A DNA stretch of 4,489 bases from a virus (Duplodnaviria; Heunggongvirae; Uroviricota; Caudoviricetes). Position numbers: made by a program. The stretch is from the IMG/VR virus record IMGVR_UViG_2671180268_000011; one strand, 5' to 3'. Shown in pieces: positions 3,001 through 4,489 of this stretch (position 1 is the stretch's first letter; the number at the start of each line of letters is the position of its first letter).

Positions 3001-4489
3001 CCCACCAACATAGTCAGACTGGGCCCAGAACGAATAGCGGGAGTCAACCTACTGGAATGTTTCCGGCAGGGAGTACTCAAGTTAGCGGGACTAATCAGGT
3101 TGGTATCAGTGGCTCATTAACCAGTGGCACCTCCCAATGGGTAGGTAAATCATCTTCAGAAGGAAACCATACACACTCACTGTCCGGCACAGCAGCATCT
3201 GCGGGTGCACACGCGCATACTGTCGGTATTGGTGCTCATACGCACTCTGTTGCGATTGGTTCACATGGACACACCATCACCGTTAACGCTGCTGGTAACG
3301 CGGAAAACACCGTCAAAAACATCGCATTTAACTATATTGTGAGGCTCGCATAATGGCATTCAGAATGAGTGAACAAGCACGGACCATAAAAATTTATAAC
3401 CTGCTGGCCGGAACTAATGAATTTATTGGTGAAGGTGACGCATATATTCCGCCTCATACAAACAAAAAACAGCCTGATGCAGGTAGCCAGTGAGCATATA
3501 GCGCCGCTTCAGGATGCTGTGGATCTGGAGATCGCAACGGAGAAAGAAACCTTGTTGCTGGAAGCTTGGAAAAAGTATCGGGTGTTGCTGAACCGTGTTG
3601 ATACATCAACTGCACCGGATATTGAATGGCCAGTAGCACCTATAGGGTAAATTCGTAATGATTACCTAAATACGTTATTCTTTTGTTAAAAAAGTGATTT
3701 TGCTATAGGTAGGGAGTATGTTCTTGGATTAAGAATAAAAAATCGCCATGAAAGAGCTTCATGGCGAGTACATAAACGTACAAAATGTGATGAAAGTAGA
3801 GTGGCGTAAGCCACTATATTAAGATATGACAATAGCGAAGAAAAGTAAATAACATTTTATGGACGTTTAATTGTTAATTATAAAAACTAGAGTGCCCGAT
3901 ATTGTTTATCTTGCTTTAAAATAATGTACTCAAACCAAATTTTTGAGCTAAAAGCTCAAATAATATAAATGCAATAATAATGTTTAATAAGACAATTAGC
4001 TTGCTTTGTATTTTCATTTCGGAATACTGTTAAGTAACTTTGATGACCCTAACAATAGATCGGAATTTTCTTAGAGTCAATGGTCACTGTTTTTGCTTGC
4101 AAAGCAAATGTTTTGGTGGTTATAAGTCGTCTTAATATAGTCACGCATGCAACTTGTTCCATGCGGAGATTAAAGATTGGAATATAACGCGAAGATGGAA
4201 TTAAATTACATTTGCAATAATTAATTTATTATTACTCAATAATTACCGATATTATTATTGTAAATTAATCATTAGAATGCAAAAAGAAATGTAACGGCAA
4301 AATAAGAGGACGATAGCTGAGAAAAAAGCGTGCTTTCCCAATCTGGGGCAAATCACGTCTGAATGACACCTGAAAACAGGTGGTAGCCTCAAGAAGGCTG
4401 GTGATGCTGCCAACTTACTGATTTAGTGTATGATGGTGTTTTTGAGGTGCTCCAGTGGCTTCTGTTTCTATCAGCTGTCCCTCCTGTTC

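Follow-up and report, generated by a model that had tools for sequence, protein, structure and literature searches.

The window analysed here, a stretch of 4,489 nucleotides from a virus of the Caudoviricetes (IMG/VR record IMGVR_UViG_2671180268_000011), holds a complete side tail fibre gene, stf, followed by a tfa gene of which only two pieces in different reading frames are left. A preliminary description had read this either as decay of the prophage or as a locus from which only a C-terminal Tfa fragment is made. We asked whether the middle of tfa was lost by a bacterium, whether the remaining pieces could still yield a product of use, or whether the loss came about when the sequence was assembled.

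A Shigella sonnei prophage locus with an intact stf

The features of the window, with coordinates and strand, are as follows.

1–205 (+): 3′ part of lom, a pseudogene, from alignment with E. coli HCP5S3 and lambda lom
232–258: terminator hairpin
270–3353 (+): stf, side tail fibre gene, intact, 1027 aa, from the ORF list and Pfam (phage_tail_N, Phage_fiber_2 and Collar domains)
3353–3460 (+): N-terminal remnant of tfa, codons 1–36, equal to nt 1–108 of intact S. sonnei tfa
3353–3493 (+): 46-aa ORF from the native tfa start, 36 Tfa residues followed by 10 others and a stop; no Pfam match
3459–3461 (+): junction of the 284-bp loss, from alignments and blastn against intact alleles
3462–3650 (+): C-terminal remnant of tfa, codons 132–193 and stop, in the +1 frame relative to the N-terminal fragment; conserved C-terminal (oligomerisation) module with an internal ATG at 3477
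3464–3469 (+): run of six A's directly right of the junction, of the same length as in intact alleles
3651–4399 (no strand): AT-rich non-coding spacer 3′ of tfa, identical in other S. sonnei loci
3767–3743 (−): terminator-like hairpin within the spacer
4400–4489 (+): first 90 nt of an IS1 copy, up to the window end; IS1 transposase genes lie at the same spot in loci L004 and L010–L013

When the window was compared by blastn with ten S. sonnei loci (L010–L019), positions 1–3460 and 3460–4489 proved to be the S. sonnei allele, a single synonymous SNP being the one departure from 100% identity over stretches of 3460 and 1030 nt; judged on sequence comparison, this identity of the flanks to intact alleles is far beyond chance. 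The SNP, at position 497 in stf, is private to the window, which has a T (ACT, Thr) where every other comparable S. sonnei locus has a C. The preliminary description was right in calling stf intact: the gene encodes 1027 aa, and the index of public assemblies lists exactly the same protein in 3,688 blocks, i.e. in very many assemblies, including HE616528.1 (S. sonnei 53G, lineage II) and CP019689.1 (75/02, lineage IIIc). The 75/02 copy of the locus belongs to 75/02pp2, a lambda-like prophage of 48.9 kb to which PHAST gives the label 'intact' (PMC5447701). Exact Tfa variants are also recorded publicly under '[Shigella sonnei]'. Codons ~130–450 of stf (window 650–1620) form a long Ala/Ser/Thr-rich low-complexity stretch, which makes this Stf longer than the 774-aa Stf of Ur-lambda.

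The left end of IS1 lies 750 bp 3′ of tfa, and the same insertion was present in all S. sonnei loci that reach this point and in a few E. coli genomes (H71–H73 and H79). At the other end of the window, lom carries an out-of-frame deletion of 83 bp at a 6-nt CTGGCG direct repeat (junction 159/160), with a premature TGA at 169–171 and the original stop at 203–205. S. sonnei L010 has this deletion, and the lom products of 160 aa called in the other S. sonnei loci agree with it; E. coli HCP5S3 and lambda lack it.

The junction in tfa and its coding consequences

When intact, tfa is 582 nt long (193 aa), and the window retains 298 nt of it. Both the alignment with an E. coli prophage, lambda and mEp332 and the blastn comparison with the ten S. 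sonnei loci revealed that relatives carry 284 extra bases between the two tfa blocks. Alignment to intact tfa genes, a step that the preliminary description had itself proposed, defined the lost segment as tfa nt 109–392 or, equivalently, 108–391, the ambiguity being a single A (A108 = A392 of tfa). The junction thus lies at 3459/3460/3461, where CATAC is followed by AAACAAAAAAC, and the loss comprises codons 37–130 together with two bases of codon 131. Since 284 = 3 × 94 + 2, the change of frame is fully accounted for. The junction had first been read as a deletion at an ACA microhomology plus one extra base, which does not fit: an ACA deletion would give CATACAAAAAAC, the window reads CATACAAACAAAAAAC, and the loss is a clean one of 284 bp with no extra base. 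A homopolymer error in the A-run, against which the reads were to be checked, fares no better as an explanation; six A's stand at 3464–3469 as in the intact allele, and with a base added the gene would still be 95 codons short.

In the intact allele, the 284 bp that the window lacks lie between the arms of a perfect inverted repeat of 9 nt (TTCCGCCTC/GAGGCGGAA; window 3446–3454, L010:9465–9473). Hairpin-mediated deletion was considered on this ground and given no weight, as about one such inverted-repeat pair is expected by chance per 650 bp and the breakpoints do not lie at the base of the repeat.

As first described, the middle of tfa is missing, the two halves are in different frames, and 36 N-terminal codons are recognisable. 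Codons 1–36 (3353–3460) are identical to the intact S. sonnei allele, after which the frame ends at a stop at 3491–3493, giving the 46-aa ORF, for which Pfam returned no match. The C-terminal piece is present too, in the +1 frame, with its size corrected from ~58 codons to 62 (132–193; 3462–3650), 57 of them from ATG 3477 on; these 57 are contained in a 77-aa ORF starting at 3417. The 77-aa ORF matches only positions 70–130 of the 131-position profile PF02413 (Caudo_TAP), as against positions 1–130 for the intact allele. In the window no single ORF spans the N-terminal fibre-binding domain and the C-terminal conserved domain, and no complete Caudo_TAP match was obtained. The overlap with the upstream fibre gene is preserved, the tfa ATG overlapping the stf stop (TAATG, 3351–3355) in the same layout as in lambda, mEp332 and E. 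coli. Whichever origin of the lesion holds, no working Tfa chaperone is encoded.

Comparison with known Tfa proteins locates what has gone. Lambda Tfa (orf-194) and the intact 193-aa Tfa of S. sonnei (75/02pp2) represent the same gene with the same overlap with the stf stop; over its first 36 and last 62 codons the S. sonnei gene is identical to the window, and lambda agrees at ~95% over the shared parts, whereas the window is without codons 37–131, has a broken frame and gives no full protein. Tfa chaperones attach to the distal fibre by a variable N-terminal domain, and their conserved, helical C-terminal module is thought to drive trimerisation (PMC9608196, on Mu Tfa 5YVQ). Intact S. sonnei Tfa aligns to the Tfa of phage Mu (gpU, PDB 5YVQ) only over residues 127–191, the similarity being confined to the C-terminal part. 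In this intact-protein alignment the C-terminal fragment of the window equals Mu residues 113–174 (5YVQ_B), whereas the variable N-terminal fibre-binding domain is almost wholly missing from the window.

Could the surviving pieces still be put to use? If the deletion is real, a stand-alone C-terminal Tfa, of 57 aa from ATG 3477 or 77 aa from ATG 3417, might be made and be partly functional. It would consist of the conserved module (Caudo_TAP 70–130) that has been proposed as the driver of trimerisation in Mu-type Tfa (PMC9608196), and the 46-aa ORF stops 16 nt downstream of ATG 3477; re-initiation after 3493 is conceivable. However, neither ATG 3477 (acaaaaaacagcctgATG) nor ATG 3417 is preceded by a Shine-Dalgarno sequence or by a promoter-like site, and the fibre-binding N-terminal domain is lost except for 36 residues, so that docking on Stf would be impossible for the fragment. 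Nor is there, in a private allele, any sign of selection, and the sole records of a 57-aa product come from contigs whose first base lies within tfa or from a long-read assembly with a frameshift. Expression from ATG 3477, which the preliminary description had held possible, is therefore not supported, and we regard a functional C-terminal fragment as very improbable. Slimmer still is the chance that re-initiation at ATG 3477 releases a free oligomerisation module, which might, for example, either poison or help Tfa proteins with the same C-terminus from co-resident or superinfecting phages.

In a 4.8-Mb long-read S. sonnei assembly (L004:9594–10174), the A-run is shortened from six A's to five (tfa nt ~396), which splits tfa into 135 + 57 aa. 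This split is probably a homopolymer error, since many neighbouring L004 genes are also fragmented.

The fragments might also be joined during expression, by a programmed +1 ribosomal frameshift or by transcriptional slippage at the A-run, to form a short Tfa. The two frames do overlap over 3417–3493, with the run of six A's inside, but the shift required is +1 (or −2), and the zero frame (ACA AAC AAA AAA CAG) offers neither an X XXY YYZ heptamer nor a prfB-like signal. Six A's are short for slippage by RNA polymerase, and the same A-run lies in frame in thousands of intact alleles, the relatives being single-frame. Even the fusion, of roughly 98 aa, would be 95 residues short, and recoding is effectively refuted.

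Searches for the junction and contig breaks in sister drafts

An intact 193-aa Tfa occupies this spot in nearly all relatives examined, and the protein was found on at least 1000 contigs. Among 5,426 complete E. coli genomes and the phage records, every top match came in two pieces spanning 284 extra bases, which disposes of the idea, raised at the outset as a possible refutation, that relatives naturally have a short gene in two frames. A junction-only 48-mer (24 nt on each side, with seeds only across the junction) gave 0 matches in the 5,426 complete E. coli genomes, and a junction 32-mer (CCGCCTCATACAAACAAAAAACAGCCTGATGC) was absent from species-representative genomes, JGI metagenomes and IMG/VR. 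At the protein level, none of the junction-containing ORFs (46, 71, 73, 74 and 77 aa) was on record, and none of the homologues of the 77-aa ORF covered its junction-specific N-terminus. The same junction in independent genomes or assemblies, as expected of an inherited pseudogene, was thus not seen in the 5,426 E. coli genomes, three contig collections and the ORF records.

The 62-aa C-terminal piece led to six sister draft scaffolds of the same prophage (L020–L025; WGS sets CWWG, CWWR, CWWL, CWWM, CWST and CWTR), and each of the six has an N-gap inside tfa. On the right, the contig restarts at tfa nt 393 (AACAAAAAACAGCC...) in 6/6 scaffolds, which corresponds to window 3461 and to the window's right flank. 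On the left, the contig ends at tfa nt 117 (three scaffolds) or 121 (one), and the left flank of the window ends at nt 107/108, i.e. 9–13 nt short. Independent assemblies of this locus accordingly have contig ends at or next to the window's breakpoints. The N-runs of L020–L022 (288–321) fit the 271–275 nt expected for a gene of intact length, and the gap lengths of L023–L025 (55, 250 and 197) are too erratic for use as evidence. L020–L022 also stop 90 nt into IS1, at the counterpart of window 4489; from this right end only, we infer that a short-read pipeline of the same kind produced the window as a complete scaffold. N-gaps of the sister scaffolds fall in the low-complexity stretch of stf as well, with edges at window 1344, 1548, 1562, 1591, 1598 and 1805.

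Breaks in this part of tfa recur in other drafts. The first base of at least 54 S. sonnei draft contigs falls in tfa codons ~127–138, giving partial products of 56–67 aa and a peak of 24 contigs at 58 aa, and the SKESA-style contigs L005–L009 begin at tfa nt 405/407. When ~100 tfa alleles with the same mid-part were compared with the S. sonnei allele, the changes met most often close to the edges were T117A (83 loci) and G404A (51 loci). From tfa nt 304 to 403, K-12 tfaR/tfaQ do not differ from the S. sonnei allele at all. SNPs at 117 and 404 combined with shared identical runs would cause short reads to break there. A second S. sonnei tfa copy was not recovered, and K-12 tfaR/tfaQ, IMG/VR alleles, the portal-Tfa fusion contig L026 and contigs of 240–282 nt served as proxies. 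The latter are tiny S. sonnei contigs of another Tfa type that have the same C-terminus. At L025:1–238, a different lom copy (5 SNPs, no 83-bp deletion) is spliced onto the locus, which shows that S. sonnei has a second lambdoid tail region and that these drafts contain chimeric scaffolding.

An assembly gap weighed against a private deletion

We put at roughly 55% the probability that the 284-bp loss is a mis-closed scaffold gap, or assembly artefact, rather than a bacterial mutation. In such a course of events, other prophages in the same genome would carry near-identical tfa copies, the 284 bp would be the tfa stretch that short-read assemblies of S. sonnei fail to resolve, and two contig ends would have been joined without the missing piece during assembly or gap closure. 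An artefact is favoured because the breakpoints match sister contig ends and the junction is seen nowhere else. The case resembles repeat-induced short-read gaps and mis-joins in that the missing piece corresponds to the N's of six sister scaffolds and contig starts cluster in the same 30 nt in at least 54 drafts; it differs from them in that the join in the window has neither N's nor an overlap. This difference weighs against an artefact, as Velvet/SSPACE/GapFiller-type tools normally insert one or more N's or rely on an overlap of 10 nt or longer, no such overlap exists at the join, and we could name no step in the usual Velvet/SSPACE/GapFiller chain that abuts contigs without either. None of the models of assembler behaviour that were tried gave both edges exactly, the left breakpoint lies 9–10 nt off the sister contig ends, and a real deletion would assemble cleanly into the identical sequence.

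It is also possible, with somewhat less than an even chance, that illegitimate recombination removed the 284 bp in one S. sonnei isolate, as ordinary prophage decay without selective meaning. The sequence is exactly as expected of a real deletion, with 1-nt microhomology, and the same prophage is already decaying, as is seen from the fixed lom deletion, the downstream IS1 and a 65-bp deletion in tfa itself. In a comparison of three Shigella species, pseudogenes built up fastest in S. sonnei (PMC7373316). Truncated or fused remnants of the Tfa C-terminus are common in E. coli, and side fibres are dispensable for lambda-type phages, so that a real deletion could well have no selective meaning. 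Reference lambda carries a split stf (orf-401/orf-314), and Hendrix and Duda are said to have reported in 1992 that laboratory lambda with its stf split is viable. Against a real deletion, the junction is in no second genome, contig or protein record, and both breakpoints lie at or beside the ends of the unassembled piece, a coincidence of roughly 10^-3 to 10^-4 for a random deletion, whose right end would fall on that contig edge in ~0.5% of cases and whose left end would come within 10 nt of the other edge in ~4%.

The 65-bp allele is the nearest parallel within the prophage. It is an out-of-frame deletion of tfa nt 123–187 at a CA microhomology, found in 53G (L012, HE616528.1) and in L019, and its 150-aa product occurs on 104 contigs; L016 shares the same four lineage SNPs with L012 and L019 and has an intact tfa, indicating that the deletion, which marks part of lineage II, arose within that lineage. 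Like the loss in the window, it is an internal, out-of-frame deletion in the same gene and prophage with minimal microhomology, and the occurrence of real internal deletions in this very gene speaks against an artefact. It has other breakpoints, however, and its presence in a finished genome and on 104 contigs makes it demonstrably real and inherited, whereas the junction of the window was seen once. Prophage decay, as the preliminary description had proposed, thus stands as one of two ordinary readings; the breakpoints coincide with contig ends in sister drafts of the same prophage. Because of this coincidence, there is a good chance that resequencing would yield one continuous tfa frame, the result that the description had named as its refutation, in keeping with the assembly artefact that we prefer.

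Losses of side-fibre function are familiar from related elements. Portal-Tfa, Lom-Tfa and Stf-Tfa (including Stf-collar-Tfa) fusions are abundant in E. coli cryptic prophages and among the protein matches. On an ENA metagenome contig (L026:5001–5876), an N-terminal fragment of the portal protein (gpB) runs in frame into tfa at codon 29, the outcome of a large deletion reaching from the head genes to the tail-fibre genes; the prophage remnant concerned has cspB-, gnsB- and Nu1-family genes and adjoins zinT. The cryptic-prophage tfa remnants and the split stf of lambda are like the window in that a deletion or frameshift has cost side-fibre function while sparing the conserved Tfa C-terminus. 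They are fixed and widely shared lesions, whereas that of the window is private and may exist only in the assembly.

The assembly artefact and the real deletion are both ordinary. If the deletion is real, Stf would be made without its chaperone and the side tail fibres, an accessory trait, would be lacking; it would be one more private pseudogene in a rapidly decaying species, hitting an accessory phage function, and would carry little biological weight. In lambdoid prophages, tfa genes are repeats present in several copies, at which short-read assemblies break in reproducible places, and apparent internal deletions or 'two-fragment' tfa genes need checking at the level of reads before they are entered in pseudogene counts or used as markers.
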